A stretch of DNA of 64,000 bases from Heptranchias perlo (Eukaryota), in assembly GCF_035084215.1 (NCBI RefSeq), contig NC_090363.1, forward strand, positions 12,338,001-12,402,000. The letters run 5' to 3'. The notes under the pieces were generated by a model. That model did no database searches, was not told where the DNA came from, and worked only from the letters and a program-made list of their open reading frames with translations. A program made the translations under genes and the position numbers. Below, piece after piece: positions 3,176-63,532 of this stretch. Each line of letters begins with the position of its first letter. Within the stretch, counting starts at the first letter, position 1.

Positions 3176-3179
3176 CTTG

Positions 3180-5065: not shown

Positions 5066-5135
5066 ATGGGACGGGCAGCAGTTTTCTCCGAATCAGTCAT
5101 TTGCTATCCAATTCTTGCAATTATTGGTCTTCCCA
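5066..5135 (+). pseudogene. GPCR A1 exon 1 (MGRAAVFSESVICYPILAIIGLP), first coding exon of the nonsense-disabled copy
   Basis: ATG in gaaATGG context; 70-nt phase-1 exon ending at a GTAAGT donor (5136). It joins exon 2 in frame to give ...YPILAIIGLPTNLMSVVILSRGKCGLS (TM1). Confidence 0.85.
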
Positions 5136-5147
5136 GTAAGTAATAAA

Positions 5148-5278
5148 TTAATGACGAAAGGTCATCGACCTGAAACGTTAACTCTGTTCCTTTCTCCAAA
5201 GATGCTGCCTCACTGAGTATTTTCAGCATTTTCTGTTTTTATTTCAGAGTTCCAGAATCCGCAGTATTCTGCGCTTGC
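5148..5278 (+). mobile_element. Penelope-like element-derived fragment with degenerate hammerhead ribozyme at the start of intron 1 (also ~17905, ~29607, ~39477, ~51190, ~62097)
   Basis: (a)TGACGA-A-AGGTC-ATC-GACCT-GAAA-CGTT-AACT fits a minimal hammerhead layout with the first core C lost, followed by cagatgctgcc..ctgagtatttccagcattttctgtttttatttcag. Confidence 0.65.
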
Positions 5279-5684
5279 AGTAATAACAAGCAATTATTAT
5301 GTGGACCATTTTTAAAATGCATTGTTGCTTTCACAATGTGCTGTTTGCCTCCATCTCTTTCTTCCTTGGTTGCCCATTTTATGGTAAGTTTATTGAATAG
5401 AAAGCGCTCACTTTGCCTTACTTCTTATAAAAGGAAAACTATTGTGATATTATATAAGGCTCTCTAAATGCATACATCAAATGCAAGTTCTCCCGTTTGT
5501 TAAACGCCTTGCAATCAGCTACATGGAATAACTGTGACCATCAGGTTTATCGTGAGGACCCTTATGCGGAGTTTTAACCAGAGTTTATCTTCCAAATGTC
5601 AACAGGCCGGTTACGCATCTCCAAGATTCAGTATACCTGACTCACGTGAATTCCTAAACTTCTCCCACGCTGTGAATTGACTTT

Positions 5685-5832
5685 GGGGGCGAATTCAACC
5701 TAACCCGACTGTCGGGAAACTGACGGGATCGTGTGCATCGCTGGTTTAATACCCCATCCCATTTTATCCACTATTGAACGCAAAGGGTTCTAAAACCGGC
5801 GTTTCACGCCATACTTGGGTTAAAATTACCCC
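5685..5832. mobile_element. ~148-bp MITE in intron 1 (also 19114-19261, ~40011-40158, ~52395-52542)
   Basis: Imperfect TIRs ggggcgaattcaacc / ggttaaaattacccc and an internal palindrome (ctggttttatacccca..tggggtgtaaaaccgg in B). Absent from the inverted copy at 3513-3718. Confidence 0.7.
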
Positions 5833-6225
5833 TTCTGTCGCATAATTTGAAGGAAATCAATGGCTGTTTTACTGAACTCTCTTCATCACTTGCTCAGGAT
5901 GAAATGGCTTCTCATAAGTAATGTGTCTCCGAAAATATCATTGACAAAATCGTGAAAGTGTCACAGTAAATCACGTGTGTCAAAGGAGGAGCCAATTTCC
6001 AGCAATTCGTATGCTGCACATACTTTATTCTCGACTGGAATCACTTAAATCAGCAGATAGTAGTGAGTGAATTTGGCACTGTCCTGATCTGGTTCTCTCA
6101 GTACAGCACCCGGTGAGACTGGGAGGAATCCGTCTCAGTAACAAGCCTCCTTTCTCACAAATACCAAACAGCCAATTCCAAAGGAGTGTGATTTTATATC
6201 TTGTTTTTTTTTCAATTTATTTCAG

Positions 6226-7121
6226 CAAACCTGATGTCAGTTGTGATCCTGTCCCGGGGAAAGTGCGGTCTCTCCAAAGGAATCACTCGTTACATGGCGG
6301 CCATGGCAGTAGCAGATCTAATGGTTTGCATGTTTAATGTAATATTACGAAATATCTTCAGGTATCATTTTCGAGATTCATGGTTGAGCTACACTTACGT
6401 GTGCCGTTTTACTGCTTTTATACAAGTATTTAGTAGCCAGCTCTCTGTCTGGTTCACAGTTTCATTCACCTTTGACCGCTTCATATCAATTTGTTGTCAG
6501 AAACTAAAATTGAAATATTGCACCGAATGAACTGCCAGTGTAGTTTTAACGACCATATGTGTGCTCAGCTTTTTGATGAATATTCCTGTTTATTTCCGAT
6601 TTGAGCCATACTATATGGTTGATCATATACAGTGGGGCTGCCGTACAGTTACAGGATATTTTTCTTCACCGGCATGGGTAGCTTACAAATGGATTAGCAC
6701 TCTCTCATTCCCAATTCTCCCATTCCCTTTGTTATTGCTGTTAAATTCTCTCACTGCCAGGCACATCTTAGTGGCCAGTAGATCTCGCAGAGCCCTGAAG
6801 AGCCGAAACAATGGGGAGAACAGCAGTGATCCCGAGATGAAGAACCGAAGAACATCCATCATTCTGCTCTTCGCTGTCTCGGGGAGTTTTATTGTGTTGT
6901 GGACGCCGATTACTGTAATAAACATCTGTGTCGGTGTGACGGAGACACCTACTTTCAAAGGTTCAAACTCACTTTATTTGGCAATTAGAATCACACTTCT
7001 GCTGATGTATTTGAGCTCCTGCACGAACACGTGCATTTATGCATTGACCCAGAGGAGATTCCGAGAGGAGATGAAGAATATGGTGAAATATCCGGTTACT
7101 TTCGTTATCAAGTTATTTTAA
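6226..7121 (+). pseudogene. GPCR A1 exon 2, GPR139/GPR142-like class A receptor with premature stop
   Basis: tttcAG acceptor; ADL (TM2), FTFDRF (DRY equivalent), LWTP (TM6) and TNTCIY (NPxxY equivalent). AGA->TGA at 6528-6530, where the other five copies have Arg, splits the ORF into 6201-6530 and 6561-7121. Confidence 0.9.
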
Positions 7122-7381
7122 TAATTAAATTTTATTTACTCGCATTTTCCTGGGATCTAGGTTCGTTGTTGCAACTTGAAGTGTTCGGCTGAGGCCAGGT
7201 ATTGCACCCATTGGTTCTCATCCTTCCACAACACCAGTTGTCCATTTTCCTACCTCACAAGGTGATGGCAGTTCCGCTGCTGTTCCAAAACTCGCCATAC
7301 CGATATGAGAAAACGAATCGCACCGAATTCTCTAAACATATTACTGATAGAATGTTTTGCGGTATCTAAAAGTTCACAACA

Positions 7382-7608
7382 TTTCACAATGGTTCATTTT
7401 TTGAGATGAAAGGACAGAGAGCGAAGGTCCCCATCAGTTCTTGGCAAATTTCGGAATATTCCCTTTGGCTCCTATGAGTGAAAATACCAGATACTCACCG
7501 TGAAGAGTCCATCTGGTCTGTACATGTGAGGGCATCAGTGACTCATTGGGGATATTTCTTCTGTATCCAATCCGTCAGGTTATCAGTGTGATCCCTATGT
7601 CTAAAGGG
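7382..7608. repeat. Left arm of the inverted pair with 11268-11748, continuing at 10322-10372 after the CR1 insertions (also ~20790-21014, ~31229-31450, ~41706-41932, ~54071-54295, ~63776-64000)
   Basis: ttcacaatggttcattttttgagatgaaa..gtccccatcagttcttggcaaa is the reverse complement of tttgtcaagcactgatgggaatc..tttcatctcaaaaatgaacaattgtgaa. Confidence 0.75.
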
Positions 7609-7635
7609 TTGGAAGTTATGCTCCAGTGATACAAA

Positions 7636-9742
7636 CGTAGAAACATATGGAAACATAGAAAATAGGAGCAGGAGTAGGCATTCGTCACATCAAGCCTGTT
7701 CCGCCATTCATTATAATCATGGCTGACCCTCTATCTCAATGCCATATTCCCGCTTGCTCCCCATACCCCTTGATGCCTTCAGTGTCGAGAAATTTATCTA
7801 GCTCCTTCTTAAATATATTTAGTGAATTGGCCTCTACAGCCTTCTGTGGTAGAGAATTCCACAGATTCACCACACTCTGAGTGAAGAAGCTTCTCCTCAT
7901 CTCAGTCCTAAATGGCCTACCCCATATCCTGAGACTGTGACTCCTCGTTCTGTATCCCACAGCCAGGGGAAACATCCGCCCTGCATCCGGTCTGTCTAGC
8001 CCTGTCAGAGTTTTACATATTTCAATGAATACCCTCTCATTCTTCTCAACTGGAGTAAATACAGGCCGAGTCGACCCAATCTCTCCTCAAACGACAGTGC
8101 TGCCATCCCAGGAATCAGCCTGGTGAACATTCGTTGCACTCCCTCTAAGGCAATTATATCCTTTATTAGATAAGGAGACCAAAACTGCATACAATACTCC
8201 AGATGTGGTCTCACCAAGCCCTGTATAACTGCAGTAAGACATATTAGCTCCTGTACTCAAATCCTCTTGCAATGAAGGCCAACATACCATTTGCCTTCCT
8301 AACTGCTTGCTGCACCTGCATGTTTGCTTTCAGTGACTGGTGTACAAAGACACCCAGGTCCCTTTGTACATTAACATTTCCCAGTCCATCACCATTTAAA
8401 TGATACTCTGCCTTTCTGTTTTTTCTTCCGAAGTGGATAACTTCACATTTATCCACATTATACTGCATCTGCCATGTATTTGCCCACTCACTCAACTTAC
8501 CTCAATCGCCTTGATGCCTCTTTGCTTTCTCCTCACATTTCATGATCCCACCTAATTTTGTGTCGTCAGCAAACTTGGAAATATTACATTTGGTTGTCGT
8601 CTCCAAATCATTGATATATATTGTGAATAGCTGGGGCCCAAGCACTGATCCCTGCGGTAACCCACTAGTCACTGCCTGCCACCCCGAAAAAGACCCATTT
8701 ATTCCAACTCTCTGTTTCCTGACTGTTAACCAATTTTCAATCCACGACAGTATATTACCCCCAATCCAATGTGCTTTCATTTTTCATGTGGGTCTTTATC
8801 AAAGGCTTTCTGAAATTCCAAATAAACCACATCTACTGGTTCTCTCTTACCTATTCTACCAGTTATATCCTCAATAAACTGCAGTGATTTTGTCAAACAT
8901 GATTATCCTTTCAGAAATCCATGTTGACTTTGTCTAATCCCTTTGATATTTTCTAAGTGTCCTGTTATCACATCCTTTATAATAGACTCTAGCATTTTTC
9001 CTACTACTGATGTTAGGCTACCCGGTCTGTTTTCCCTGTTTTCTCTCTCCCTCAATTTTTAAAATAGTGGGCTTACATTTGCCACCCTCCAATCTGCAGG
9101 AACTGTTCCATAATCGATCGAATTTTGGAAAATGACAACTCATGCATCCACTATTTCCATGGCTACCGCTTTCAGTATTCTGGGATGCACATTATCAGGC
9201 CCTGTGGATTTATCGGCTTTCAGTCCCATTAATTTCTCCAGTACTATTTTTTTACTAATACTAATTTCCTTTAATTCCTCCTTCTCACTACTCCCTTGGT
9301 TCCCTAGCATTTCTGGGAAGTTATTTGTGTCCTTTTCCGTGAAGACAAAACCAAAGTATTTGTTCAATTGCTCTGCAATTTCCTTCTTCCCCATTATAAA
9401 TTCTTCCGTTTCTGACTGTAAGGGACTTACATTTGTCTTCGCTAATCTTCTTCTTTTTACATACTTATTGAAGCTTTTACAGTCCACTTCTATGTCCCTT
9501 GCAAGTTTACTCTCATACTCTATTTTTCCCTTCTTAATTGATCTCTTGATCCTTTTTTGCTGAATTCTAAACTGCTCCCAATCTTCAGGCTTGCTTCTTT
9601 TTCCGGTAACTTTATATGATTCCTCTTTTGATCTAATACTATTCTTAATTTCTTTTGTTAGCCACGGTTAGGCCGCTTTTCCTTTTGTGTTTTCGTGCCA
9701 GAAAGGAATGTATAATTGTTGCAATGCATGCATTGCTTCCTG
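7636..9742 (-). mobile_element. ~2.1-kb 5'-truncated CR1, A-unit specific, nested in a + strand CR1 (A2 copy ~41960-42930 has an internal 1136-bp deletion)
   Basis: RT motifs SGLPQGSVLGPQLFTIYINDL..KFADDTKL; WQMQYNVDKCEVIHFG; (agaaacat)n tail; atacaaa duplicated at 7629 and 9745. Confidence 0.92.
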
Positions 9743-10322
9743 TTATACAAAGCCCTGGTTAGACCGCACCTGGAGAACTGTGTACAGTTCAAAGTACCTC
9801 AAAATGGAAAGGATATTGAACTTGATGGAAGGGCAGCGTTGATTTACTAGAATGATACTTGGACTCCAAGGGTTCAATTGTGAGAGATTACACAAACTAG
9901 GGTTGTATTCCCTGGAATGTGGAAGATTAAGGGGTGATTTGCTCGAAGTTTTCAAGATATTAAAGGGAACTGATATGGTAGATCGAGAGAAAGTATTTAC
10001 GCTGGTTGAGGACTCTAGGACTAGGGGACATAGCCGAAAAATTACAGCCAGCATCTTGAGGAGTGAAGTTAGGAAACGCTTCCACACGCAAAGAATGATA
10101 GAAGTTTGGAACTCGCTTCGGCAAACGGCAGTTGATGCTAACTCAATTGTTAATTGTTAATCTGAGATTGATAGATTTTTGTCAACTAAAGGTGTCAAGC
10201 GATTTGGGGCGAAGGCGGGTATATTGAGTTAGATCAGAGATCAGCCATGAATTCATTAAATGGCAGAACAGGCTCGAGGGGTTAAATGGCCTACTCATGT
10301 GCCTATGATCCAATGTTCCAAT
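9743..10322 (+). mobile_element. CR1 3' fragment (starts at ~7609 before the nested insertion; also ~21015-21612, ~31450-32050, ~42931-43510, ~54296-54893)
   Basis: RLHKLGLYSLE..RLRGDLLEVFKILKG..SRTRGH..VWNSL peptide plus CR1 3' UTR and (cctatgtt)-like tail. Confidence 0.87.
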
Positions 10323-10519
10323 GATATCAGAACCATAACAATATGGTATGTAATTCTGCAACAAGTAAGGGACAGAAATTGTGTTTCTTTGTGACAAGGT
10401 CCACAGAGCTCTCCTGACGGGAGATTGATAGACACAGGAAGTCACATCGTTGGGTGTGCGAGGTTATATAACAATTGGACCATATTGTAAAATAGTAGAA
10501 TTTGTTTTTAAATTTATTC

Positions 10520-10900
10520 TCAGAATGTGTACATCCCTGGCTAGGCCGGCATTTATTGCCCAGCGCTAGTTGACGTGAGAAGGTGATGACGGACCTTCTT
10601 CCTTGAATCATCTTTATTGGTATGATACAACTGTGTGGCTTGCATGTCCATTATGAGGGTAGATAAGAGTCAACCAAGTAACAATAGGCCAGAATCTATG
10701 ACAGTTTTCCTTCCCTAAAGGACATCATTGAACCGATTCGGTTTTTAAAACTATCAGATTGCCTTATGATCACTTTTACTGGCTTTTTTTCCAGATGTCC
10801 AGGGAAACAGAATTAAAATTCTCATAAAGCGGTGGTGCAATTTGAACTCAAGGTCTCCGAATTACTAGCCCAGGAATATAACCGCTTCATTGTCGTAACC
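10520..10900 (-). mobile_element. Decayed tRNA-type SINE with LINE-derived tail (also ~21805-22115, ~32248-32615, ~43708-44088, ~55086-55396)
   Basis: The tail ggcatttattgccc..tgagaaggtg is homologous to the LINE 3' end at 18140. A head-like segment (tttgaactc..attactagcccag..taacc) gives reverse-complemented B-box/A-box-like motifs. Confidence 0.65.
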
Positions 10901-11267
10901 GTTATATCATTATAATGCACTGTCAAGCTTGCCCAATTCATAAATCTGTGCCTTGTTTGTTAAAGATCTGCTCCAATTAGAAGATTATGATTTGATTTTT
11001 GGCTTTAGGAGCTCAACTATTCGCTTCAATGCTCAAGGACTGAGAACATGTAGAAGTTGGGCGGGGTCCATTCTCCTGGTCAAATTTAAATGACCTCTCT
11101 GCGAAAGTATGCCTGTCTGTAGGCTGGGAGCAGCTCAGCTTGAGTTAAACCTAGAGTACATCACATGTGGAGAATCACAATGCATCCTGACAAGCAGTGA
11201 AAGATCACACGCTCTGGACCATGTGTCATACTTCGCAGAAAACCACCGCCTATGTTTGCACGTGAAA

Positions 11268-11748
11268 TCCCTTACTTTGTGCAGAAATACATCGCATATT
11301 TTATTGCTTCTGATACCCTTGCACACGGTGACCAAAGGTATTCTTGATCAGTTCCTGCTGTCCTCTCACATACAAACCAGTAGTAACCACCCTGTGCTGT
11401 AGCTGATATTTTCAGTCATATGGACCAACGGCAACTTTTCCGTTCTGCAGATTATACAGTCACTCATAGGGACCAGATGGAATCTTCCAGTTATGTACCT
11501 GATATCTTCACTCATAGCGACCAAAGGAAATTTTCCCATTGTGCAGATGATACGTTTACTCATAGGGATCAAAGGGAATCTTCCTATTCTGTATCTGATA
11601 TTTTCGCTCATAGCGACCTGATGGCTTCCTCACATTTTGTATCTGACATCTTGACTCGTAGGGAAAATAGGAATCTTCTACCCTTTGTCAAGCACTGATG
11701 GGAATCTTCCCCTGCTGCGTTTTCATCTCAAAAATGAACAATTGTGAA
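11268..11748. repeat. 48-bp tandem repeat array, right arm of an inverted pair (also ~22483-22912, ~32983-33450, ~44456-44936, ~55756-56185)
   Basis: Repeats of actcatagggaccaaagggaatcttcccattgtgtatctgatatcttc; gives 16-aa periodic ORFs on both strands. Confidence 0.85.
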
Positions 11749-14569
11749 CAATATTAAGGATTAAGTTGTGCATGTGATCGTCTAACATTCATCAGATTCA
11801 AACATCTGGATGAAAGTGTCCAATATGTCACTTGTACGTCAATGTTTTCTCCCAGTCTACATATATTGTAAATTTATCTTCAGAATTGATCGCAACTGGG
11901 GCAATTCAAAAATCGAATTCATTGTCCGCATGCCTGATTGATTACTTGTTCGTTCTGCTGAGCAGATCTGAATCCACATTGCAATGAATTTACCTGATTT
12001 TAAAATATTTTAGTTTGCCAAATCTACAGAAATACTTTTCCATGCAATTCGATTTGATATAACTGTCCTGCTTGACGTGTCGAAGGCCATTTTATCAGGA
12101 CAGAAGCAATCTTCCAAGGGGCTGATGTGCAAATGATGTCATTCAGATGATGATAAAGGATTGCACAATGAATGATAAAAGTAATTATTTTGGGAAAGGA
12201 ACGGAGTGATGCAGAGAACAGATTGTGGGGAGGTCCTCAGTTGAAAAAAGGAATCAGGCGATGCGCCATGATCAACTGCGCAGGTAGAGGGTCATTTGCG
12301 GATGTTTGTCAGCAATAAGCCAATCTTTTATTCAAAATCTTCTGATATTAGCTTGTTTAGTTGTTCAAATGTCAATCCATGTCAATGGCGTTGACTATCA
12401 GCAAATTAAATTTTCAAAATACTCACCAGTAGGAATCTGGTGGTGTATCGATATATATCGAGGACATCGGTATAACTGCCTCACCGAACTCCATGCTGGT
12501 GTTCAAAGATTAGAAGAGATCTTTCATGTCGATGAAGTAATTAAGATTTGAAAATTCCCTCCTTAATTTTGGAAAACACAGGGTTAAAGTGCTTAACCTT
12601 GGCCTTTAGTTAGAAGGTCAGGGCTATCGACGTTCTTTTGGATAGAATGTTGACAAACAGCTCTTTAACTGAAAAGGATATGAGGAATGAATGCAACCGA
12701 CAGTGTGTAAATAGAAGAACACGTGGCTGAGATCAGACACATGAATCTAGAGAACCAAAGGAAGAATTCTACCAGAATTAGAATTTTTTGGAGTCAATGA
12801 CAGGCAGGATCCGACATACAGTTTATGATAATCTTGACAACATTACATAAAATGGCCGTGAGAAAGCCTTGAAGACATTTTAGTGAAGTTTCGCTGTATG
12901 GTTGGTATTTTAATATATTCCAATTTCGCTTTCAAAAGCTTAACACACGTTAAAACACGTGCATGAGACAGGAAGTCAACGTGGGAACAGGAGTATGTCA
13001 TTCAGTCCCTCGAGACTTTTCCGCTGTTCAATGAGGTCATGACTTATCTGTATCCTAATTTCATCCACCCGCCTTGGCTCCATATCCTTAAATAACCTTG
13101 GCTGGAAAAACTGTCAAAGATCTCAGATTTAAAGTTATTAATTGAAGTAGCATCTATTGCATTTTGTGGGAGAGAGTTCCACATTGAGAATCTATGTGTG
13201 AAGAAAGATTTCGCAACTTCTCTCCTCAATGGCCTTGCTCTTTGTCCTCGACTCCACAATCAGCAGAAAAAAAATTCGCTCTATCTATCCTATCAATTCC
13301 TTTCAAAATCCGAAAAAACGTCAATCAAATCACCCGTTAACCTTCTATTTTCGAGGGACGACAAGCCTGGTTTGTGTATTCTCACCTCATAATCTAATCC
13401 TTGGATCCCTGGTAACATTCACGTGAATTTGCGCTGCACTCCTTCCAAGGCCAATATATCCTTTCTGAGGCGCAATGCCCAGAACTGTACACAGTACTCC
13501 AGATGTAGACTAACCAGGGTTTTGTATAGCTGTGGCAAACATTCCTGTCCTTTCTATTCTATCCCTCTCCTGATGAAGGCTAACATTCCATTAGTCTTTT
13601 TGATAATTTTTTCTACCTGACGACTACATTTTACTGATCTGTGGAGATGGAGCACAAAATCTCCTTGGACCTCCAATGTTCCTAACTTTTCAGCATTCAA
13701 AAATACTCGGATCAATCCCTTTTTGGTAGAAAATGGATGACCTCACACTTGCCTGAATTGAAATTATAATAACTTCCCCACAACAAATGTTAGATTATTA
13801 GATTTTAAATGTCATGGTATTTCTCTCTCATTTTTCTTAAATAATGGAGTTACATTTGCAGTATTCCAATCTAAAGGGCCAATTCCAGAATCGGGAGTGC
13901 TGTGAATATTATGGCGAAAGCATCTGCAATTTCCTCACCTACTTCCTTTAAAATCCTGGGGGTAAAGTATAAGGCCTGGGGATTTGTCATTCTATACGGC
14001 CATCAATATTTCTAATTTAGTTTTCTTGCGTACATTATCGTCAGTGAGTTCCAGTCCTTGATTCATTATTAGATTCCCTGGAATGTAAGGAATATTATCC
14101 TATTCCTCTACTGTGAAGACTAGCACAAAGGAATCATTCATCACGTCAGCCATTTCCTTATTTTCATTAGCAATATTACCAGCATCTTTTTTGCTTACAC
14201 TTTTTCTTCTACTATAATGATAAACACATTTGTAAATTCCCTGCTATCGTTACAAAGGCAGGAGTTGGGGTTGTTCAATGGAGATGGGGAATTTGCTCAA
14301 TTCAATACGGTCAGAATTAGATTGTGTCCCTCACATCCACACTGTTCACAGTAAACATCCTGAGGCAATGAAATGTGTAACCGTGTCTGAGAAATTTCAA
14401 AGTGACGAAACACACAAAGGAAGAGTCGATGGGAGAATATACGAAACCTGAGGCCCAGTAGAGAGCACAAGGAAGGTGTTAGCAGCAATTACAGTTTTGC
14501 ATCTGTTGTGTATTTGCAGCAGATGCTGTTTAACTTTAGTTCTTTAATGTAGTCGCTGGACAGCGAGTG

Positions 14570-14785
14570 CTGTGCCTGGGGAGGCTGGGTTACTTGGGCA
14601 CAAGGGGAGTCGGAGATAGGCGGTGAGGGTACCTGCGGTCCTTGGGCAACAGTGTGAAGGGGAGATAGGCTGCGAGGTGTCCCTGGGTTGCTTGTGCCAC
14701 AGAGAAGGGGAAGGCAGGTGTTGAGGGAGCCCTGGGCTGCTTGGAACAAAGCGGGAAGCGGAAACAGTCTGCAAGGGGTCCTTGG
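14570..14785. repeat. G-rich ~49-bp degenerate tandem repeat (also ~27060-27262, ~47852-48067, ~60332-60534)
   Basis: About 4 copies of gggtgcttgggcaca..ggaaggggagacaggctgcgagggaaccct. Confidence 0.7.
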
Positions 14786-17700: not shown

Positions 17701-17819
17701 TGTAAAACCACTGTCTCCCTGTGGGACTGACTGGTGTATAAAACACCTCCTGTTTCAATGCATTGTCTTTGTGTCCAAACCAGAGCCTTGCATCCACGAT
17801 TGTCTCGCTTAGGCAGGAA

Positions 17820-17889
17820 ATGGGAGGATCAGCAATTTTCTACGAATCAGTCATTTGCTATCCAATTCTTGCAATTATTGGTCTTCCCA
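17820..17889 (+). CDS. GPCR B1 exon 1 (MGGSAIFYESVICYPILAIIGLP)
   Basis: 70-nt phase-1 exon with GTAAGT donor at 17890 and upstream TATAAAA; in frame with exon 2. Confidence 0.85.
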
Positions 17890-18137
17890 GTAAGTAATAA
17901 GTTAATGACGAAAGGTCATCGACCTGAACCGTTAACTCTGCTTCTTTACCACAGATGCTGGCTCACTGAGTATTTTCGGCATTTTCTGATATTTTTCAGA
18001 TTTCTAGGATCCGCAATATTTTGCTTTTGAAGTAATAACAAGCATTTATTTTTTGAACCATTGTTTAATTACATTGTTGCTTTTAATACATGCTGTTTGC
18101 CTCTATATCTTTGTTCCTTGGTTGCCCATTTTTAAAA

Positions 18138-27751: not shown

Positions 27752-27792
27752 ATTCACAAGCTTTCGGAGATTTTCTCCTTCCTCAGGCAAAT
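27752..27792 (-). ncRNA. Minimal type I hammerhead ribozyme motif (inverted copy)
   Basis: Exact reverse complement of 28345-28385. Confidence 0.7.
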
Positions 27793-50400: not shown

Positions 50401-51104
50401 GTTTGTGATTGAGCAGATCGGTAGCCATGAGGTACATTGCAGATATGTTATATTGATCAAAATAACCATTCAGGGTATAACATTGGTGACAATGGTCACT
50501 CAATCGCCGACCATGTTATGCTGGTGAAATTGTGTTAATTGCACTGACACCTAATTGAACAGTGCTGCCGGGTGATGACCCATTTTATATTCCACTCCCA
50601 GCTTCGATACTGTATGTCATCAAGTCAATACGATTTACTCTATCACTCTATCACTCTCACAGCTTTTTGATATTATTTACACTTTGACTCTCATGTGCTA
50701 ACGGACGGGTTCACATTTTATTCCCCTTCTTCTCCATTTAACTTTCAGTTTTTATGACTGAAGAAACGAAGCCATCGCAGAATGAATTAAAGCATCGTGT
50801 TCCCAAGAGCAGAATAACGCGATCAAGATGATGTAATGAGGTAACAGGTTCAGAGCGGGGTATTCATAAGCCTGAGAATGCCCCTTGGAGCCTCGATATA
50901 CTCACTGCCTCATTAAGTGATCGTTTGGAAAATAAATATGTTCTAATGTGTTTGTTCCAGCGCGCGTGGCTGATACCGGGTTTAATGTAAAACCACTGTC
51001 TCCCTGTGGGACTGACTGGTGTATAAAACACCTCCTGTTTCAATGCATTGTCTTTGTGTCGAAACCAGAGCCTTGCATCCACGATTGTCTCGCTTAGGCA
51101 GGAA

Positions 51105-51174
51105 ATGGGAGGATCAGCAATTTTCTACGAATCAGTCATTTGCTATCCAATTCTTGCAATTATTGGTCTTCCCA
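51105..51174 (+). CDS. GPCR B2 exon 1 (MGGSAIFYESVICYPILAIIGLP)
   Basis: 70-nt phase-1 exon, GTAAGT donor at 51175. Confidence 0.85.
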
Positions 51175-52919: not shown

Positions 52920-53818
52920 CGAACCTGATGTCAGTTGTGATCCTGTCACGGGGAAAGTGCGGTCTCTCCAAAGGAATCACTCGTTACATGGCGGCCATGG
53001 CATTGGCAGATCTAATGGTTTGCATGTTTAATGTAATTTTGCAAAACATCTTTCGGTATCATATTCTAAATTCATGGTTGAGCTACACTTACGTGTGCCG
53101 TTTTACTGCTTTTATACAAGTATTTAGTAGCCAACTCTCTGTCTGGTTCACAGTATCATTCACCTTTGACCGCTTCATATCGATTTGTTGTCAGAAACTA
53201 AAATTAAAATATTGCACCGAAAGAACTGCCTCTGTAGTTTTAACGATCGTGTGTTTGCTCAGCTTTTTGATGAATATTCCTGTTTATTTCCGTTACGAGC
53301 CCTACTCTATTATTGACGATATACCGTGGGGCTGCCGTACAGTATCAGGACATTTTTATTCACCGGCATGGGTAGCTTACAAATGGATCAACACTCTCTC
53401 ATCCCCAATTCTCCCATTCCCTTTGTTATTGCTGTTAAATTCTCTCACTGCCAGGCACATCTTAGTGGCCAGTAGATCTCGCAGAGCCCTGAAGAGCCGA
53501 AACAATGGGGAGAACAGCAGTGATCCCGAGATGAAGAACCGAAGAACATCCATCATTCTGCTCTTCGCTATCTCGGGGAGTTTTTTTGTGTTGTGGACGC
53601 CGATTACTGTAATAAACATCTGTGTCGGTGTGACGGAGACACCTACTTTCAAAGGTTCAAACTCACTTTATTTGGCAATTAGAATCGCACTTCTGCTGAT
53701 GTATTTGAGCTCCTGCACGAACACGTGCATTTATGCATTGACACAGAGGAGATTCCGAGAGGAGATGAAGAATATGGTGAAATATCCGGTTACTGTCATT
53801 ACTAAATTATTTAAATAA
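52920..53818 (+). CDS. GPCR B2 exon 2, GPR139/GPR142-like class A orphan receptor (spliced 322 aa)
   Basis: ttacAG acceptor; intact ORF 52928-53818. Confidence 0.92.
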
Positions 53819-56800
53819 TTAAATTTTAATTCCTCGTATTTTCCTGGTATCAAGGTTCGTTGTTGCTACTTGAAGTGTTCGGCTGAGGCCAAATATTGCA
53901 CCCATTGGTTCTCAACCTTCCACAACACCAGTTGGCCATTTTCCTACCTCACAAGGTGATGGTAGTTACGCTGCTGTTCTAAAACTCGCAATACCGATAT
54001 CAGAAAACAAACCACACCGAATTTTCCAAACATATTGCTGAAATAATGTTTTAACATAAACTTCACAACGTTTCACAATTGTTCATTTTTTGAGGTGAAA
54101 GCACAGCGAGCAATGGTGCCCACCGGTTCTCAATGATTTGCAGAAGATTCCCTTTGGCTGCTACTATGAAGATATCAGATACACAACGTGAAGATTCCAT
54201 CTGGTCTGCACGTGTGAGGGCATCAGAAACTCATCGGGAATGCTTCTTTTGTATCCAGTCTTAAAGGATGTCAGTTTGGTTCCTGTGTGTAAGGGGTTGG
54301 AAGTTATGCTACAGCTATAGAAAGCCCTGGTTCGACCTCACCTGATATACTGTGCACAGCTCTGAGCACCGCACCTTAGGAAGGTTATATTGATCTTGGA
54401 GTGGGTGCAGCATAGGTTTGCTAGAATGATAACTGGAATCCAAGGGTTAAATTAGGTGAGATTACACAAACTATGGTTGTATTCCCTAGATTTTAGAAGA
54501 TTAAGGTGCGAGTTGATCAAAGTTTTCAAGATATTAAGGGGAACTGAAAGGGTAAATATAGAGAAACAATTTCCGCTGGTCGGGGAGTCTAGGACCAGTG
54601 GGATACCGCCTAAAAATCGAGCCAGAACCTTCAGGAGTGAAGTCAGGAAACACTTCAACTGGGGTGGTAGAAGTTTGGAACTCTGTTCGGCAATCGGCGG
54701 TTGATGCCAGCTCGATTGTTAATTTGAAATCAGAGATTGATCTATTTTTGTTATTCATAGGTATTAAAGGATTTGGGGCAAAGCCGGGTATATGAAGTTA
54801 ATTCACAGATCAGCCATGAACTCATTGAACGGCAGAACCGCCTCCAGTGGCTAAATGGCCTACTCCTGTTCCTATGATGTCATGTTCCTATGATATCAGA
54901 GACACAACAATATATGTATTTCTGCAAAAAGGGACAGAAATTTTGTTTCTTTGTGATAAGCTCCACAACTGTCTCCTGACTGGAGATTAATAGACACGGG
55001 AAGTCACATCACTGGGTGTGCGAGATTATATAACAATTGGACCATATTGTAAAATAACGGGACTTATTTATTTCATTTATTCTTTGAATGTGGGCATCCC
55101 TGGATAGGCCGGACTTTATTGTCCATCGCTAATTGTCCTGTGAACCTTTTGTTTTATTCGTTCATGGGTTGTGAGCGTCGCTAGCAAGGCCAGCATTCAT
55201 TGCCCATCTCGAATTGCCCTTGAGAAGGTGGTGGTGAGCCGCCTTCTTGAACCGCCGCAGTCCGTGTGGTGAAGGTTCTCCCACAGTGCTGGTGATGGCA
55301 GGCCTTCTGCCTTGAATCACTGTCAGTTGTTTGAAACAAATGTGTGGATTGTGTGGCCACTTTACAGCGTAGCGAACCATTACACTACCGTAGCCATGAC
55401 TTCATTATAACGCAGTGTCCAGCTGGCCCAATCCGTGAATCTGAGCCTTGCTTGTAAATGATCCGTTCCAATCATGATTTGATTTTTGGCGTTAGGAGCT
55501 CAACAATTCGCTTCAATGCTCAAGGACTGGGGATGTGTAAAAGTTGGGCGTGGTCCGCTCTCCTGGTCAAATTTAAATGACCCCTCTGCGAAAGTGTGCC
55601 TGTCTGGATTCAAGGAAGAGCTCAGCTTGAATTAACCCAAGGTTATATCTCATGTCGAGAATCACAGTGCATCCTCACAGGCAATGGAAGATCATACCCT
55701 CTGTACCATGTGTCAGAATTAGCGGAAAGCTTCCGTCGATGTTTTCCTGCGAAATCCCTTACATTTTGCAGAAATACATATCATATTGTATTGCAGATGA
55801 TATCCGTGCACACGGAGACCAAGGTATTCCAGATCAGTTCTTGATGTCCTCAGACGCACAGTTCAGTTGCAATTTCAGTGTTCTGTCGCTGATATTTTTA
55901 CTCATATGGACCAAATGCAATCTTTCTGTTCTGCAGATGATATGGTCAATCAGAGGGAGCAAATGAATCTTCCAGTTTTGTTTCAGATATCTTCACTATT
56001 GGGAACAAAGTTCATTTTCCCATTGTGTAGATGATACATTTACTCAAAGCGATGAAAGGGAATCTTCCCATTGTGTATCTGACATCTTGACTGGTAGGGA
56101 AAAAAGGAATCTTCTATCCTTTGTCAAGCACTGATGGGAATCTTTCCCAACTGCGTTTTCATCTCAAAAATGAACAATTGTGAAAAATATTAAGGATTAA
56201 GTTACGCATGTGATCATCTAACGTTCACCAGATTGAAACATCTGGATGAAAGTGTCCAATATGTCACTTGTACCTCAATGTTTTCTCCCAGTCTACATAT
56301 ATTGTAAATCTATCTTCAGAATTGATCGCAAGTGGGGCAATTCAAAAATCGAATTCATTGTCCGCATGCCTGATTGATTACTTTTTCTGTGCAGATCTGA
56401 ATCAAATTGAAATGAATTTGTGATTTTAAAATATTTTAGAAAGCCAAATCTACAGAAATACTTTTCCATGCAATTTGATTTGATATAACTGTCCTGCTTA
56501 ACGAGTCGGAGGCCATTTTATCAGGGCATGAGTAATCTTCGAAGGGGCTGATGTGCAAATGACATCATTCATGGTTCCATGATTGGACGGTAATAAATTT
56601 CGGCAAGAAACATTGGCGGATTAAAAGAGGAAAGTTGATTATATCGGCCTGCTATCAACAAAATGGTGGATATAATTGCATGATGAATGATAAAAGTAAT
56701 TATTTTGGGAAAGGAACGGAATGATGCAGCAAACAGACTGTGGGGAGGTCCTCAATTGAAAAAAAAAGACTCAGGCGAAGGGCCATGAGCAACCGCGCAA

Positions 56801-59800
56801 ATAGAGGGACATACGGGAAGTTTGACAGCAATAAGCCAATCGTTCATTCAAAATCTTAGTATATTAGCTTGTTTAGTTGTTCAAATGTTAAACCCTGTCA
56901 ATGGCTTTGAATATCAGGAAAGTAAATTCCCAAATACTCACCAGTAGGAATCTGATGGTTTATGAAGGGGCTAAAAAGGGCATCAGTAGAACTGCCTCAC
57001 CGAACTCCATACTGGTGATCAGAGATTAGAAGAGAACTTTCAGGTCGATGGATTAATTAAGTTTTAAAATTTGCCACCTAAATTTTGGAAAACACAGGGT
57101 TAAGTGCAATAGGCCCTTAGTTAGAAAGTCAGAGCAATCGACGTTCTTTGGGATCGAACTTTGACAAACAGCACTATAAGTAAAAAGGATATGAGGAATG
57201 AATGCAACCGACAGTGTGTAAACAGAACAACGCGTGCCTGAGATCAGACACATGCATCTCGAGAACCATAGGAAGAATTCTACCAGAGTTGGAGGTTTTT
57301 GGAGTCAATGAAAGGCATAATCCAACATACAGTTTATTATAATGTTGAAACATTACATAAAGTGACCGTGAGAATGCCTTGAAGACATTTTAGTGAAGTC
57401 TCACTATATGATTGGTATATTAATATACTCCAATTTGGCTTTCGCAATATTAACCCACATTCAAACATGTGTATGGGGTAGGAAATCAACATAGGAACAA
57501 GAATAAACAATTTAGTCCCTCGACCCTTTCCGCTGTTCAATGAGATCATGGCTGATCTGTATCCTAACTCCATCCACCCGCCTTGGTTCCTGATCCTTTA
57601 ATAACCTTGGCTAGCAAAACTGTTATCGATCTCAGATTTAAAATTATGAATTGAAGTAGCATCTGTTGCTTTTAGTGGGAGAGAGTTCCACATTGCTACC
57701 ACTCTATGTGTGAAGAAATGTTTCCTAATTTCTCTCCTGAATGGCCTGGTTATGATTTTAAGTTTATGTCCCCTTGTCCTAGACTCCCCAACCAGCGGAT
57801 TTTTTCCCCTCCATCAACCCTAGCAAATCCTTTCGAAATCCTAAAAACGTCAATTAAATCACCCGTTAACCTTCTATATTCGAGGGGCTCCAAACCTGGT
57901 TTGTGTATTCTCACCATATAATCTCACCCTTGGCGCCCTGGTAACATTTCTTCACTCAACGGGGTGGTGAACCTATGGAATTCTCTACCACAGAATGCTA
58001 TGGAGGCCAAGTCACTGAATATATTTAAGAAGGAGCTAGATAGATTTCCAGACACAAAAGGCATCAAGGGGTATGGGAAGAGAGCGGGAATATGGTATTG
58101 AGATAGAGGATCAGCCATAATCATATTGAATGACGCAGCAGTCTCGAAGGGCCGAATGGCATAATCCTGCTCCTATTTTCTATGTTTCTATGTTACATTC
58201 TGGTGAATTTGCACTGCACTCCTTCCAAGGCCAATATATCCTTTCTGAGGCGCAATGCCCAGAACTGTACACAGTACTCCAGATGTAGTTTAACCAGGGC
58301 TTTGTATCGCTGTTGCAATCCTTCCTCCTTTTTATATTCTGGCCCTCTAGTTATTAAGGCGAACATTCCATTAGTTTTTTTGATTATTTTTTGTACCTGA
58401 CTACTACATTTTAGTGATCTGTGTAGATGGACCATTAAATCTCTTTGGACCTCCACTGTTCCTAACTTTTCACCATTGAAAATTGCTCGGATCAATCCTT
58501 TTTTGGTCCTCGCACTTTTGGATGACCTCACACTTGCCTGAATTGAAATTTCAATAACTTCTCCACATCAAATGTTAGACTCACAGATTTATAATTTCCT
58601 GGTACTCACTCTCGTCTTTCTTAAATAATGGAGTTACATTTGCCGTATTCCAATCTAAAGACGCAATTCCAGAATCGAGAGAGCTTTGGAAGATTATGGC
58701 TAAAGCATCTGCAATTTCCTCACCTCCTTCCTTTAAAATCCTGGGATGGAAACCATCAGGTCCTAGGGATTTGTCAGTCTATACTGCCCTTATTAATCCT
58801 AATTTTGTTGTCTTGCTTACATTAACGTCAGTGAGTTTCAGTCCTTGATTCATTATTAGCTTCCCTGGAGTGTTCGGTATATTATCCTTTTCCTCTACTG
58901 TGAAGATTGACACAAAATAATTATTCAACAAGTCTGCCACTTCCTTATTTTCATTTGCAATATTACCAGCGTCTGTTTTGATTACCGTTTTTCTTCTAAT
59001 ATAATCGTAAACACCTTTTGTGTTGATCTTGGTATCCCTCGCAAGGCTCTTTTCGTATTCCGTTTTTTGCAGGCATTTTTATCTGTTTTGGCTTCCTTTG
59101 CTGTTCTTTATATCACCCCCAGTCCCCTGGATCTACACTATTCTTTGTACTCTTTTATGCCCTTTCGTTTAGTTTTATGTTGTCTCTCATCTTTTTATTC
59201 TGCCATGACTGTTTTATTTGGTACGTAGAGCTCTTGTCCCTTCTGGTTATATACTGGTCCTGTATCAAATTAAATTCTTCTTTGAACACCGCCCACTGTT
59301 CGTCTGCAGTTTGACTCGATAACAGTTTTGATAAGATTGATTTCGTCAGTCTCTGTCTCACCGCTTTAAAGTTAGCCATATCAAAATCTGGAATCTTAGA
59401 AATTGTGTTACGTTTCTCCTCAGGGAGTGAATCATTCCTTTTTAAACACTGTGTATTGTACATGTACAGGACTGACACTGAGACACTCTTTCTATTTCTC
59501 TCTCTCCATCTTTATCCCTCTATATCTCTCTACCTCACTCTCCGTCCTCTCTGTTTCTCTGTCTCTATTTCTCGCTGTCTGAATCTCTTTTGTTCATTTC
59601 TCTCCCCCACTCGCTGCCCTTTCTCTTTCCCTCTCTCCTTCTTTCACTCTTCTGCTCACTCTCTATTTGTATTTCTCTCTCTATCCCTTTTCCCCTGCCC
59701 CTATCACTGTTCCTCTCCCTTTCTTGCTGTCTCCCTTTCATTGTTGTCTCTGAAATGTTCTTCATTGAGATGTACTCTGAAATATTTCAGTCTCACTGGT

Positions 59801-62011
59801 AAATAACAACAAATCACAATTCTATAGCTTTTCTATACATTAAAGGTTCAATTAGGGGTTGCAAATCTGTCAGGAAGTTCTGGTTTCTCAACTTAAAACA
59901 TTTTAGTGTTTAAAATTTTACAGGGACCTGAGATCAAAAGCTGTTTCCCATTCAGACATTCCAGCATTTGGAAGTCCCTGTTATCTTTACAGAGACAAGG
60001 GATGGAATTGTTCAATAGAGATGGAAGATTTGATCAATTGAGTAGTGTCAGAATTAGATTGAGTCGCTCACATCTACACTGTATTCAAGCTGTTTCCAGC
60101 AAACACCCTGAGGCAATGAAATGGGTAAACCATGTCTGAGAAATTTCAAAGTGACGAAACACACAATGGAACAGGAAATGGGAGAATATACAAAACCGGA
60201 GGCCCAGAACAGAGCAGAAGGAAGGTGTTAGCATCAATTTCAGTTTTTGCATCTGTTGTATATTTGGACCAGATGCTGTTTAACTTTAGTTCTTTAATGT
60301 AGTCGCTGGACAGTGAGGGCTGTGCCTGGGGAGCCTGGGGTGCTTGGGCACAAGGAGAGTAGGAGATAGGCGGTGAGGGGACCCTGGGGTCATTGGGCAA
60401 CAGTGGGAAGGGGAGACAGGCTGCGAGGGTACCCTGCGGTGCTTGTGCAATGGAGGAGGGGAAGACAGGTGTTGAAGGAACCCTGGAGTGCTTCGGCACA
60501 GAGGGAAGGGGAAACAGGCTGCGAGGGAACCCTGGATTATATTATGCGACCAGTGACACTGAGAAACACATACGTTGAACAGTTAGTGACAAATGTCCCG
60601 TGTATGTGCTGATCCATTTGTGACACATTTTTAATGTCGAATCAAATATTCCTGCGTACGACAGAGACTGTCCGTCAATAATTCCCTTTTACTCACAGTG
60701 TACTTGTGCGTATACAGAAGCTGACACTGAGACATACGTGTGCCATACAGTACCAGACGGGAGTGAATCGGTCCCTTAATCACGCTGTGTACTGTACATG
60801 TACAGGAGCAGACACTGAGACATACACGGCCATACAGTACCAGAGGAGAGTGAATTGTTCCCTTGTGCCCGCTGTGCGCTGTACATGTAGAGCAGCTGAC
60901 ATTGAGACAAGCATGGTCTCTCAGTAATCTTAGTGATAACGAAGTCCATCAGCTCGTCGCACTTGTTGTTGGAGGTGGCTGTAGAGGGGCAGTGGTTAGA
61001 GGTTTAAGAAGACCGTTTGCAGTGGAGAAAAGAAGACGGGGTTTATGTTTTCATTCCAGGATGATCCTGCAATAGTGAGCAATTTTGACAGAGGAGAACA
61101 GGACCCGATAAAGCTGTATGTGGTCAAGCCAGATCTGGCAATGAATTGATAAACCAGTTGTCGGCCATAAATTTTAAAGTCTGGGGCCCTTGGACTTAAG
61201 CAAGCGGAGGTGGGAGCTGTGCCAAGGGCAAGGACCAGTGTGAGAGGGAGTAATGGTTTTAATGGAGCAAGGGCAACAAAGTTGGAGGTGCGGGTGTGAT
61301 TGAGCAGATCAGTAGCCATTAGGTACAGTGCAGATATTTTATATTGATCAGAATAACTCTTCAGGATAGGACAGTGACCAACAGTCACTCAATCGCCGAC
61401 CATGTTCTGCTGGTGAAATTGTGTCAATCGCACTGGCACCTGATTGAACGGTGCTGCCGGGTGATGACCCATTTTATATTCCACTTCCAGCTTCGAAATT
61501 GTATGTCATGAAATCAATGCGATTTACTCCATCACTCTTTCACTCCCACAGCTTTTTGATATCATTTACACTTTGACTGTTATGTGCCAACGGACGGGTT
61601 CACATTTTATTCCCCTTCTTCTCAATTTCATTTTTAGATTTTACAACTGGAACAACGGAGCCTTCTCAGAATTAATTAAAGCATCGTGTTACTAACAGCA
61701 GAATCACAAAAGAAGCTGCTTTGAGGTAACAGTTTCAGAGCGGGGGATGACTGAGCCTGAGAGTGCCCAGTTGAACCTCGATTTTCTAACTGCCTCATTA
61801 AGTGATCGTGGAGCGCACTTTACTCATTGATTTGGAAAATAAATATGTTCTAATGTGTTTGTTCGAAGACCCGTGGCTAATACCATCTCTTATGTAAAAC
61901 CACGGTGTCCCTGTGGGACTGACTGGTGTATAAAACAGCTCCTGTTTCAATACGTTGTCTTAGTGTTCAAACCAGACTCTTGCTTCCACGGTGGTCTGAA
62001 TTAGGCAGGAA

Positions 62012-62081
62012 ATGGGACGAGCAGCAATTTTCTACGAATCAGTCATCTGCTATCCAATTCTTGCAATTATTGGTCTTCCCA
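62012..62081 (+). CDS. GPCR C2 exon 1 (MGRAAIFYESVICYPILAIIGLP)
   Basis: 70-nt phase-1 exon, GTAAGT donor at 62082. Confidence 0.85.
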
Positions 62082-62636
62082 GTAAGTAATAAATTAATGA
62101 TGAAAGGTCATCGACCTGAAACGTTAACTTTGCTTGTTTGCCACAGATGCTGCCTCACTGAGTATTTCCAGCATTTTCTGTTTTTATTTCAGAGTTCCAG
62201 CATCCGCAGTATTCTGCTCTTGCATGAATAACAAGCATGTATTAAGTGAAACATAAATGCATTGTTGCTTTCACGTTTTGCTGTTTGCCTCCATCTCTTT
62301 GTTCCTTGGTTGCCCATTTTATGATAAGCTGATTGAATAGAAATCTCTCACTTATCCTTATTTTCTTCAAAACGATAACTATTGTGATATTATAGAGTGC
62401 TCTCGAAACGTATACATCAAATGCAAGTTCTCCCCTTTGATAAGCGCCTTGCAATTAGCTACCTGGAATACCTGTGGCCATCAGGTTTATCGTGAGGATC
62501 ATTATGCGGAGTTTTAACCAGATTTCTCTGGCCTCCTTTCTCATAAATGATAAACAGCCAATGCTAAAGGAGTGTGATTTTATATCGCTGATCTATTTCT
62601 TTGTGATTCTCCTGCTTTCTTTCCAATTTCTTTCAG

Positions 62637-63532
62637 CGAACCTGATGTCAGTTGTGATCCTGTCCCGGGGAAAGTGCAGTCTCTCCAAAGGAATCACTCG
62701 TTACATGGCGGCCATGGCAGTAGCAGATCTAATGGTTTGCATGTTTAATGTCATTTTGCAAAATATCTTCAGGTATCATTTTCTAGATTCATGGTTGAGC
62801 TACACTTACGTGTGCCGTTTTACTGCTTTTATACAAGTATTTAGCAGCCAACTCTCTGTCTGGTTCACAGTATCATTCACGTTTGACCGCTTCATATCCA
62901 TTTGTTGTCAGAAACTAAAATTAAAATATTGCACAGAAAGAACTGCCACTATAGTTTTAATGATCGTGTGTGCGCTCAGCTTTTTGATGAATATTCCTGT
63001 TTATCTCCGTTATGAGCCCTACTCTATTATTGACGATATACAGTGGGGGTGCCGTACAGTAACAGGATATTATTCTTCATCCGCATGGGTAGCTTACAAA
63101 TGGATTAGCACTCTCTCATCCCTAATTCTCCCATTCCCTTTGTTATTGCTGTTAAATTCTCTCACGGCCAGGCACATCTTAGTGGCCAGTAGATCTCGCA
63201 GAGCCCTGAAGAGCCGCAACAACGGGGATAACAGCAGTGATCCCGAGATGAAGAACCGAAGAACATCCATCATTCTGCTCTTCGCTATCTCGGGCAGTTT
63301 TATTGTGTTGTGGACGCCGATTACTATAATAAACATCTGTGTCGGTGTGACGGAGACACCTACTTTCAAAGGTTCAAACTCACTTTATTTGGCAATTGGA
63401 ATCACACTTCTGCTGATGTATTTGAGCTCCTGCACGAACACATACATTTATGCATTGACCCAGAGGAGATTCCGTGAGGAGATGAAGAATATGGTGAAAT
63501 ATCCATTTACTGTCGTTAAGTTATTTAAATAA
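62637..63532 (+). CDS. GPCR C2 exon 2, GPR139/GPR142-like class A orphan receptor (spliced 321 aa)
   Basis: tttcAG acceptor at 62635-62636 and intact frame. The ORF-track extension 62474-62636 is intron read-through. Confidence 0.92.

Follow-up and report, generated by a model that had tools for sequence, protein, structure and literature searches.

The receptor array and its surroundings

The analysed window, a stretch of 64,000 nt from Heptranchias perlo, carries six two-exon class A G protein-coupled receptor (GPCR) genes that lie on the + strand in an (ABC)x2 array (Table 1). Four of the six are intact (B1, A2, B2, and C2, with proteins of 321–322 aa) and two are disabled. In every copy, coding exon 1 comprises 70 nt followed by a GTAAGT donor, a phase-1 intron interrupts TM1, and a TATAAA box is located 83 nt 5' of the ATG. 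DRF is present in 6/6 copies, NTCIY is found in the A and B copies, and NTYIY in the C copies. These gene models confirm the first-pass annotation with respect to the arrangement, the number of intact and disabled copies, and the motif variants. Structure prediction for B2 yielded a confident class A GPCR model (pLDDT 87), and tblastn detected no seventh copy in the 64-kb window. Several copies are cut short and misnamed in RefSeq, where the models lose exon 1.

Table 1. Features of the receptor array, in window positions
Feature	Position	Strand	Remarks
First ABC block	1..31453		extends past left end of window
A1 exon 1	5066..5135	+	ATG, 23 codons, first half of TM1; TATA box 4983
A1 exon 2	6226..7121	+	early TGA at 6528-6530 (codon 125; AGA in A2); pseudogene
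B1 exon 1	17820..17889	+	TATA box 17737
B1 exon 2	19639..20537	+	intact; 322 aa total
C1 exon 1	29522..29591	+	TATA box 29439
C1 intron insertion	29928..30039		112 nt, missing in C2; begins (CATAAGAA)x4; presumably a retroelement 3' end
C1 exon 2 remnant	30206..30985	+	169 nt deleted, including the splice acceptor, the exon 2 start, and the remainder of TM1 up to mid-TM2; pseudogene
Second ABC block	34329..64000		~99% identical to first block except large indels; extends past right end
A2 exon 1	39392..39461	+	TATA box 39309
A2 exon 2	40550..41445	+	intact; 321 aa total
B2 exon 1	51105..51174	+	TATA box 51022
B2 exon 2	52920..53818	+	intact; 322 aa total; 7tm_1 E 1e-23
C2 exon 1	62012..62081	+	TATA box 61929
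C2 exon 2	62637..63532	+	intact; 321 aa total

The long ABC blocks show 97.8–99.7% identity in alignment, with large indels, and the A, B, and C units align with one another at approximately 81–89%. It is conceivable, albeit unlikely, that the doubling is partly an assembly artefact in which two haplotypes of one ABC block were set in tandem, as approximately 1% substitutions together with a few large indels would fall within the allelic range. The local loci would then drop to three, the wider family would be unaffected, and the other readings considered below would be compatible with this one. However, a third A-type version (P0004, 95%), a third B-type version (P0001, 97%), and four further paralogues (88–94%) are found on a contig of the same 21.08 Mb size, and amplification beyond two versions is therefore real.

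Comparison among A, B, and C gave dN/dS values of 0.33–0.49, indicative of purifying selection, and coding distance was 0.06 as compared with 0.12–0.26 for most flanking and intron segments. The locus thus differs from the handful of neutral copies with dN/dS near 1 that the first-pass annotation had set up as its own counter-case, and the family is large. The six window copies are nearly identical in the pocket, with A, B, and C differing at few pocket positions, and no positive selection was seen among them (dN/dS 0.44 in the outer and 0.36 in the inner part). Across nine close paralogues, variable sites were more frequent in the outer part (42/129) than in the inner part (24/125; p 0.02). 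The lack of a positive-selection signal among these six DNA copies is in keeping with genomic drift or dosage, whereby unequal crossing-over expands the array, the copies all serve one endogenous ligand or a few of them redundantly, and diversity arises without a detection role. The very recent duplication of whole blocks, the quick losses, and the dN/dS of 0.51–0.74 in the youngest pairs (from 9–16 changes each) fit this account as well.

In the A and C units, a 48-bp repeat located 3' of the copies contains an open frame of 103 codons, which was considered as a co-duplicated ligand or partner gene. The frame is shifted in the B unit, mismatches are spread evenly across codon positions (18/17/21) with a dN/dS of 1.13, and nothing in the Atlas scored above 0.84; the candidate was therefore rejected as non-coding. 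None of 14 other long open reading frames selected from the window matched Pfam, and there were no Rfam matches; these frames presumably derive from retroelements, whose remains they resemble. With regard to promoters, no O/E-type site is common to the six copies. TAATGA occurs on the minus strand approximately 200 nt upstream of all six, among 44 such hexamers in the window, but it represents one inherited site and therefore provides no evidence for an olfactory promoter.

Family extent and nearest relatives

A family search retrieved 1,761 proteins at E<=1e-3 from 2,637 candidates, and 104 clusters (50% identity) scored E<=1e-30. Among the best 120 of the 1,761 matches, 119 are named shark or ray proteins from 17 species, and the 120 matches listed include at least 33 Heptranchias protein clusters on contigs of 15 different sizes. 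The family tree is marked by species-specific bursts. Judged from these sequences, this is a large elasmobranch family with many subfamilies and ongoing gene birth and death. No description of it was found in the open-access literature. One read-derived match, P0057, was discarded as expression evidence because its sequence begins past the exon junction and is hence uninformative.

Relationships were read from trees of the family and its relatives that contain no GPR139 or GPR142 row. In the quick tree as well as in an IQ-TREE run on fewer sequences, the sister of the expanded family is a single-copy amphibian and sturgeon orphan gene (P0214 group, 'probable GPR139' in RefSeq; SH-aLRT 99 in the quick tree and 89/90 in the IQ-TREE run). 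This gene shares the short N-terminus and both cysteines with the family (32% identity, 138 bits) but is represented by one cluster per species among 21 matches, and its pocket is nearly invariant (0.16 bits). A second single-copy relative (P0234 group; 103 bits) belongs to the same branch, likewise has the short N-terminus and both cysteines, and is kept in sharks (orthologues P0269, P0272, and P0276) and non-mammalian bony vertebrates. It nevertheless forms a separate clade (99.9/100) and is GPR139-like at two positions, with R6.51 in 77/77 and D7.36 in 76/77 members. Because both single-copy relatives possess it, the short N-terminus is ancestral rather than diagnostic and was dismissed as a chemoreceptor mark. 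Either group may correspond to the 'GPR210' of PMC6504862, a paper whose text nowhere mentions sharks.

The top PDB sequence match of three queries was human GPR139 (7vug, 9m42), with 42.5 bits for the window protein and 70.4 and 53.2 bits for the single-copy relatives, although the lead for the window protein is small (the mu-opioid receptor scores 40.0 bits). By sequence, no characterised receptor is nearer than GPR139, and on this measure the family belongs to the GPR139-related branch of class A GPCRs. In a search by fold, GPR139 ranked eighth, level with peptide receptors, and the two are not separated. The window genes are not GPR139 orthologues, given six copies and 42.5 bits to human GPR139 as compared with 103 and 138 bits to the two orphan groups. 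The GPR139-like label of the first-pass annotation, taken to mean duplicates of GPR139, has to be given up accordingly, as the nearest relatives are the two other single-copy vertebrate orphan genes.

GPR139 itself responds to Trp and Phe, signals through Gq/11, and is expressed in the habenula. The family and GPR139 share W6.48 and the missing proline at 7.50. Their pockets differ, with Q3.32, V3.33, S/N at the H187 position, I6.51, and L7.39 in place of E108, F109, H187, R244, and N271. GPR139 is single-copy in mammals whereas the family is multi-copy, and the TM3 and ECL2 cysteines are kept in 190/195 family members whereas the alignment places Asp at 3.25 in human GPR139. The residues of the GPR139 Trp/Phe pocket are F3x33, H5x43, W6x48, R6x51, and N7x38 (PMC5430874, PMC8807744), and one of these five (W) is kept in those five copies that retain both exons. 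Across the family, R6.51 is found in 7/195 members, N7.39 in 4/195, and F3.33 in 20/195. The earlier proposal of aromatic amino-acid sensing by analogy is therefore unsupported.

Pocket variability and the case for a ligand repertoire

Pocket divergence is to be expected in any paralogous GPCR family, sensory or otherwise. Across the whole family, mean entropy was 3.03 bits at 14 GPR139 contact positions, 1.83 bits at 49 other outer-half positions, and 0.99 bits at 67 inner positions on the G-protein face (p 3e-6), and the single-copy groups showed the opposite pattern (0.66/1.08 and 0.16/0.60 bits). The test sets paralogues (mean identity 47%) against orthologues (57% and 76%) and assumes that positions vary independently. 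Seven-residue pocket fingerprints numbered 130 distinct in 136 non-redundant members, as compared with 13 in 32. At the same time, subfamily pocket residues are conserved across sharks and rays (Q3.32 in 62/65, Q3.37 in 62/65, and R7.36 in 54/65).

These data weigh against genomic drift, which we regard as improbable. If the receptors served a single ligand redundantly, their pocket would be expected to stay the same, whereas here the pocket is the least conserved helix part in the family, single-copy relatives keep theirs, and the subfamily residues are maintained. A hypervariable pocket over a conserved intracellular face instead reads as the signature of a many-ligand repertoire, and this signal comes from variation in the whole family rather than in the six window copies. 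The family probably constitutes a diversified-ligand repertoire. In this respect the first-pass annotation holds in part: lineage expansion, birth and death, and an apparently uncharacterised status all stand and are joined by the diversified pocket, with duplication of GPR139 and aromatic amino-acid sensing the exceptions. The fuller reading, that the locus is a recently formed part of a large elasmobranch class A GPCR family, still amplifying in tandem and serving many-ligand detection, may well be correct, the balance being about even.

The sequences show that an orphan receptor gene of the GPR139-related branch, which amphibians and sturgeon retain as one copy, was amplified into many shark and ray subfamilies that keep on duplicating and dying. 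The intracellular face has stayed conserved, and pocket residues were altered member by member. By analogy with GPR139, all members may signal through one G-protein pathway (Gq/11 or Gi); each may have its own small-molecule or short-peptide ligands, and jointly they could span a ligand space that varies or originates outside the body.

Mammalian MRGPRs and formyl-peptide receptors act as sentinels for microbial, parasite, and damage peptides and for irritants. A comparable internal repertoire in leukocytes, mast-like cells, or skin sensory neurons is rather unlikely here, although birth and death and the pocket pattern fit it too. MAS1 and its relatives are reportedly missing from cartilaginous fishes (PMC8455134), which would leave the sentinel role vacant. 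However, no MRGPR or FPR appears among the best 60 of 191 PDB sequence matches, and the 'C5a receptor-like' RefSeq names on some copies carry no weight as evidence, being best-hit labels of truncated models.

Sharks fertilise internally, and in the catshark a number of or and v2r genes are enriched in testis. A reproductive role could be imagined, in which the receptors act in gonad, sperm, or the female tract and respond to rapidly evolving peptides of seminal or pheromonal origin. This would recall the insect sex-peptide receptor, to whose kind the GPR139 branch is related; GPR139/142 are reported kin of MIP/sex-peptide receptors (PMC12208981, PMC8514136). The case is purely circumstantial and no ligand gene accompanies the array; of the readings weighed here, we hold this the least probable.

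Possible chemosensation and implications for cartilaginous fishes

Whether the repertoire serves external chemosensation is evenly poised, and its site of action would most likely be chemosensory cells of the olfactory epithelium, taste or solitary chemosensory cells, or the gut lining. Features of a chemoreceptor-type repertoire were found, namely tandem clusters, lineage-specific birth and death, pseudogenes, and a pocket that differs between paralogues while the signalling face is conserved. Vertebrate OR, TAAR, V1R, V2R, T1R, and T2R genes likewise form clustered arrays with pseudogenes and a variable pocket over a conserved scaffold, but they differ in ancestry, and the present family has two coding exons. 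In a Pfam scan of 100 members, all matched 7tm_1 and 12 matched Srx weakly; none matched the OR, V1R, V2R, or taste-receptor models, and none matched Srw (PF10324) at E<=0.01. TAARs are likewise covered by 7tm_1.

The nematode srw family is described in PMC2576165 as kin of FMRFamide and myosuppressin receptors that evolves by birth and death and is speculated to sense environmental peptides. Such birth-and-death growth from the FMRFamide/myosuppressin-receptor branch, in srw and related invertebrate expansions, resembles that of the shark family, and srw-bearing clusters rank third and fifth among its Atlas look-alikes. The shark family would represent a separate vertebrate expansion.

A further olfactory or gustatory family from the GPR139/sex-peptide-receptor branch, larger than the known shark olfactory repertoire and sparsely expressed in chemosensory neurons, is a possibility we put forward only tentatively. 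The 50 top brain and olfactory genes of the catshark given in PMC11979771 include no GPCR, but known V2Rs are missing from that list too. Nor does the family appear in the main text of a catalogue of vertebrate chemoreceptors (0 'GPR' matches), in which cartilaginous fishes average 43.8 olfactory receptor genes though their sensory neurons are many (PMC10869828).

Two conserved single-copy vertebrate orphan receptors have been concealed under the GPR139 label. According to PMC8455134 and PMC10869828, cartilaginous fishes have few GPCRs and olfactory receptors. Those counts leave out a family that comprises, in a single shark, at least 33 distinct protein clusters and whose pockets vary between members. 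If the family is immune or somatosensory, it would be an MRGPR counterpart of independent origin. If it is sensory, it would be a new vertebrate chemoreceptor class with a bearing on shark smell and taste, and an olfactory or gustatory role would explain the chemical coverage achieved by animals with approximately 44 known olfactory receptor genes.

Structure of the receptor copies and their flanks

Six-frame translation and self-alignment of the window reveal one class A GPCR gene present six times on the plus strand, and the first-pass description of two-exon copies in an (ABC)x2 array, four intact and two broken, holds. More specifically, B1, A2, B2, and C2 are intact and encode 321–322 aa, A1 is disabled by a TGA at codon 125, and C1 has lost 169 nt that included the splice acceptor and the beginning of exon 2; a tblastn search of the window yielded no seventh copy. 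The two ABC blocks share long alignments of 97.8%–99.7% identity with large indels, and identity among the A, B, and C units is approximately 81%–89%. All six copies possess a TATAAA box 83 nt 5' of the ATG, 70 coding nt in exon 1 followed by a GTAAGT donor, and a phase 1 intron within TM1. This exon 1 model is supported by full-length relatives that begin equally short, with N1.50 at residue 23–27 in 35 of the 38 relatives with a readable motif (38 of the best 120 matches). The only Pfam match of the window protein is 7tm_1, and exon 2 of copy B2 is predicted with confidence to fold as a class A GPCR bundle that includes an ECL2 hairpin (pLDDT 87, pTM 0.84).

Two segments of about 1.1 kb (8410–9527) and 0.8 kb (27666–28432) occur in the first ABC block only. 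A minus-strand ORF in the former (9143–9667) has no Pfam match and resembles a LINE fragment. C1 and C2 diverge by 2.2% between 30206–31453 and 62753–64000, compared with about 1% over the rest of the duplication; conversion by another paralogue may have raised the divergence here. The 48-bp repeat was rejected as a gene: the A and C units carry an open frame of 103 codons, yet its evolution is not coding-like.

Repeats flanking the receptor copies
Feature	Positions	Location
48-bp tandem repeat	11398–11678, 22607–22841, 33069–33396, 44586–44866, 55880–56114	2–4.5 kb downstream of five copies
Inverted single 48-bp repeat unit	7453–7518, 20862–20925, 31295–31360, 41777–41842, 54143–54206, 63842–63907	~310–330 nt past each stop codon
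87–89-bp tandem repeat	2332–2593, 14927–15293, 27426–27637, 36651–36935, 48209–48575, 60698–60909	1.1–2.6 kb 5' of ATG, all six units

Expansion in sharks and rays, selection, and ancestry

A search with the window protein returned 1,761 matches among 2,637 candidates, and 119 of the best 120 are shark and ray proteins from 17 species; the closest match listed is a Heptranchias perlo protein (97%), and no chimaera protein appears among the species-named matches listed. The best 120 matches reach down to 318 bits and species cluster counts are lower bounds, with at least 26 clusters in Heterodontus and at least 33 in H. perlo, the latter covering at least 101 member sequences that may include isoforms or other species and lying on at least 15 contigs of differing length. 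Representatives at 50% identity form 104 clusters at E<=1e-30, part of them fragments. A tree of 201 of the 268 retrieved proteins (>=240 residues covered) and five window proteins places the window copies in a subfamily common to sharks and rays, with independent expansions of this subfamily in Heptranchias, Pristiophorus, Mustelus, Narcine, and carpet sharks. The earlier claim of a lineage-expanded family is thus borne out.

A family of few neutral copies with dN/dS near 1 had been named as the finding that would speak against this claim. In comparisons among A, B, and C types, dN/dS ranges from 0.33 to 0.49, and relatives are numerous in sharks and rays. The youngest pairs reach 0.51–0.74, each on just 9–16 changes. 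Between-type distance is 0.06 in exon 2, 0.14–0.16 upstream, 0.12–0.26 in the intron, and 0.18–0.20 downstream, although one upstream 200-nt segment of A2/C2 falls to 0.07. These ratios and the low exon 2 distance indicate that the copies were under purifying selection. No sign of positive selection was seen among the six window copies (dN/dS 0.44 in the outer, extracellular half of the helices, 0.36 in the inner half). Among nine close paralogues, variable sites number 42/129 in the outer and 24/125 in the inner half (p 0.02).

The proposed likeness to GPR139 survives in part. Among PDB sequences, human GPR139 matches best (42.5 bits), narrowly ahead of the mu-opioid receptor (40.0), and ranks 8th in a fold search; two single-copy orphan groups, led by the proteins P0214 (138 bits) and P0234 (103 bits), are closer. 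P0214 leads 21 matches, one per species, from 20 amphibians (including frogs, a newt, and a caecilian) and one sturgeon, and the pocket of this group hardly varies. The P0234 group spans coelacanth, ray-finned fishes, amphibians, turtles, squamates, and sharks, and mammals and birds are absent among the species-named rows of the best 120 of 145 matches. The P0214 group branches as sister of the expanded family (SH-aLRT 99 with 83 rows in a quick search; 89/90 with 38 rows), the P0234 group and its shark orthologues stand apart (99; 99.9/100), and the expanded clade itself has moderate support (82; 89/88), in trees that omit GPR139 and GPR142 and whose root is held by long branches of unplaced proteins. 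The P0214 receptor is likely the bony-vertebrate orthologue of the shark family. Two P0234-group models (Stegostoma, Hyla) are annotated as TMEM183A isoforms, hinting at a neighbouring gene common to P0234 loci. One report gives the name 'GPR210' to sets of orphan receptors close to GPR139/142 from gar, coelacanth, and fishes (PMC6504862), and one or both groups may be this receptor. Two others describe GPR139/142 as kin to MIP/sex-peptide, proctolin, and FMRFamide receptors (PMC12208981; PMC8514136).

A diversified pocket and its predicted function

According to two studies, Trp/Phe activation of GPR139 requires F109, W241, and N271; H187 is important for surrogate agonists, and R244 is a ligand contact (PMC5430874; PMC8807744). 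By PDB-match alignment, only the tryptophan among these key residues is present in the five window copies that have both exons, so that aromatic amino-acid sensing by GPR139 analogy finds no support. GPR139 R6.51 and N7.39 occur in only 7/195 and 4/195 expanded-family members, whereas R6.51 is kept in 77/77 of the P0234 group. In that group (e.g., P0269, P0272, P0370), the GPR139-like R6.51 and D7.36 are kept in sharks, fishes, amphibians, and reptiles.

The family set comprised 195 rows (201 tree proteins minus 15 outgroup, plus five window proteins and four added with the P0214 search), or 136 at 80% identity; the P0234 set held 77 of 120 rows, reduced to 32, after 33 without a species name, one fusion, and nine short rows were dropped, and the P0214 set held 21. 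In the family, entropy averages 3.03 bits over the 14 GPR139 contact positions, compared with 1.83 over the 49 remaining outer-half positions and 0.99 over the 67 inner ones (p 3e-6); the test takes positions as independent although they are not, uses sequence-based numbering, and includes many family rows without a species name. A generic 31-position pocket list gives the same ranking (2.56, 1.85, 0.99). The single-copy groups are reversed, the pocket being their conserved part (P0234 0.66 vs 1.08; P0214 0.16 vs 0.60), although the groups differ in depth, mean identity being 47% in the family and 57% and 76% in the single-copy groups. Seven-position pocket combinations number 130 in 136 family members versus 13 in 32 P0234-group members. 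Within the window subfamily a core is constant across sharks and rays (Q3.32 62/65, Q3.37 62/65, R7.36 54/65), which suggests tuning at the subfamily level. Each disulphide cysteine is retained in 190/195 family members.

Our comparisons of gene and predicted protein sequences show that the family has amplified, with gene birth and death, that its signalling face and both disulphide cysteines are retained, and that its pocket has diversified. All members would feed one shared G-protein route, and their ligands would be many and varied; the ancestry and the nearly absent N-terminal domain make small molecules or short peptides probable. Since fixed-hormone receptors, like both single-copy relatives, keep their pockets, these ligands are probably variable or external. 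Chemosensory cells are our best guess for the site of action, a guess we hold about evenly; an immune or somatosensory sentinel role seems rather unlikely, and a reproductive role or drift improbable. A minus-strand TAATGA hexamer some 200 nt before the ATG in 6/6 promoters resembles a homeodomain site of olfactory receptor promoters, but as a single inherited site it is no evidence of an olfactory-type promoter, and no O/E site is common to the six. On average, cartilaginous fishes have 43.8 olfactory receptor genes alongside many sensory neurons (PMC10869828), and GPCRs of any kind are absent from the catshark olfactory top-50 gene list (PMC11979771). The related nematode srw family followed a similar path, environmental peptides being its speculated ligands (PMC2576165; PMC11682238).

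An overlooked family

Expanded-family proteins are already present in RefSeq. The six closest models (P0001–P0006; 275–276 aa) lack exon 1, begin in TM2, and are named mu-opioid, cephalotocin, C5a, or melatonin receptor-like; copy B2 is likewise truncated in the Atlas, and 'probable G-protein coupled receptor 139' is the label on most of the remaining members. No description of the family was found among the open-access titles and abstracts listed, and earlier mention in subscription journals or in supplements is possible; the main texts of catshark, whale shark, and chemoreceptor-catalogue papers, and 12 of 24 whale-shark supplements, do not mention it under the terms searched. The sequences indicate that this receptor family of sharks and rays is real, under-annotated, and of the repertoire type, with a predicted function. 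Misnamed models of this type would inflate shark counts of mu-opioid, cephalotocin, C5a, and melatonin receptors, and the P0214 receptor is a good first target toward the ancestral ligand.
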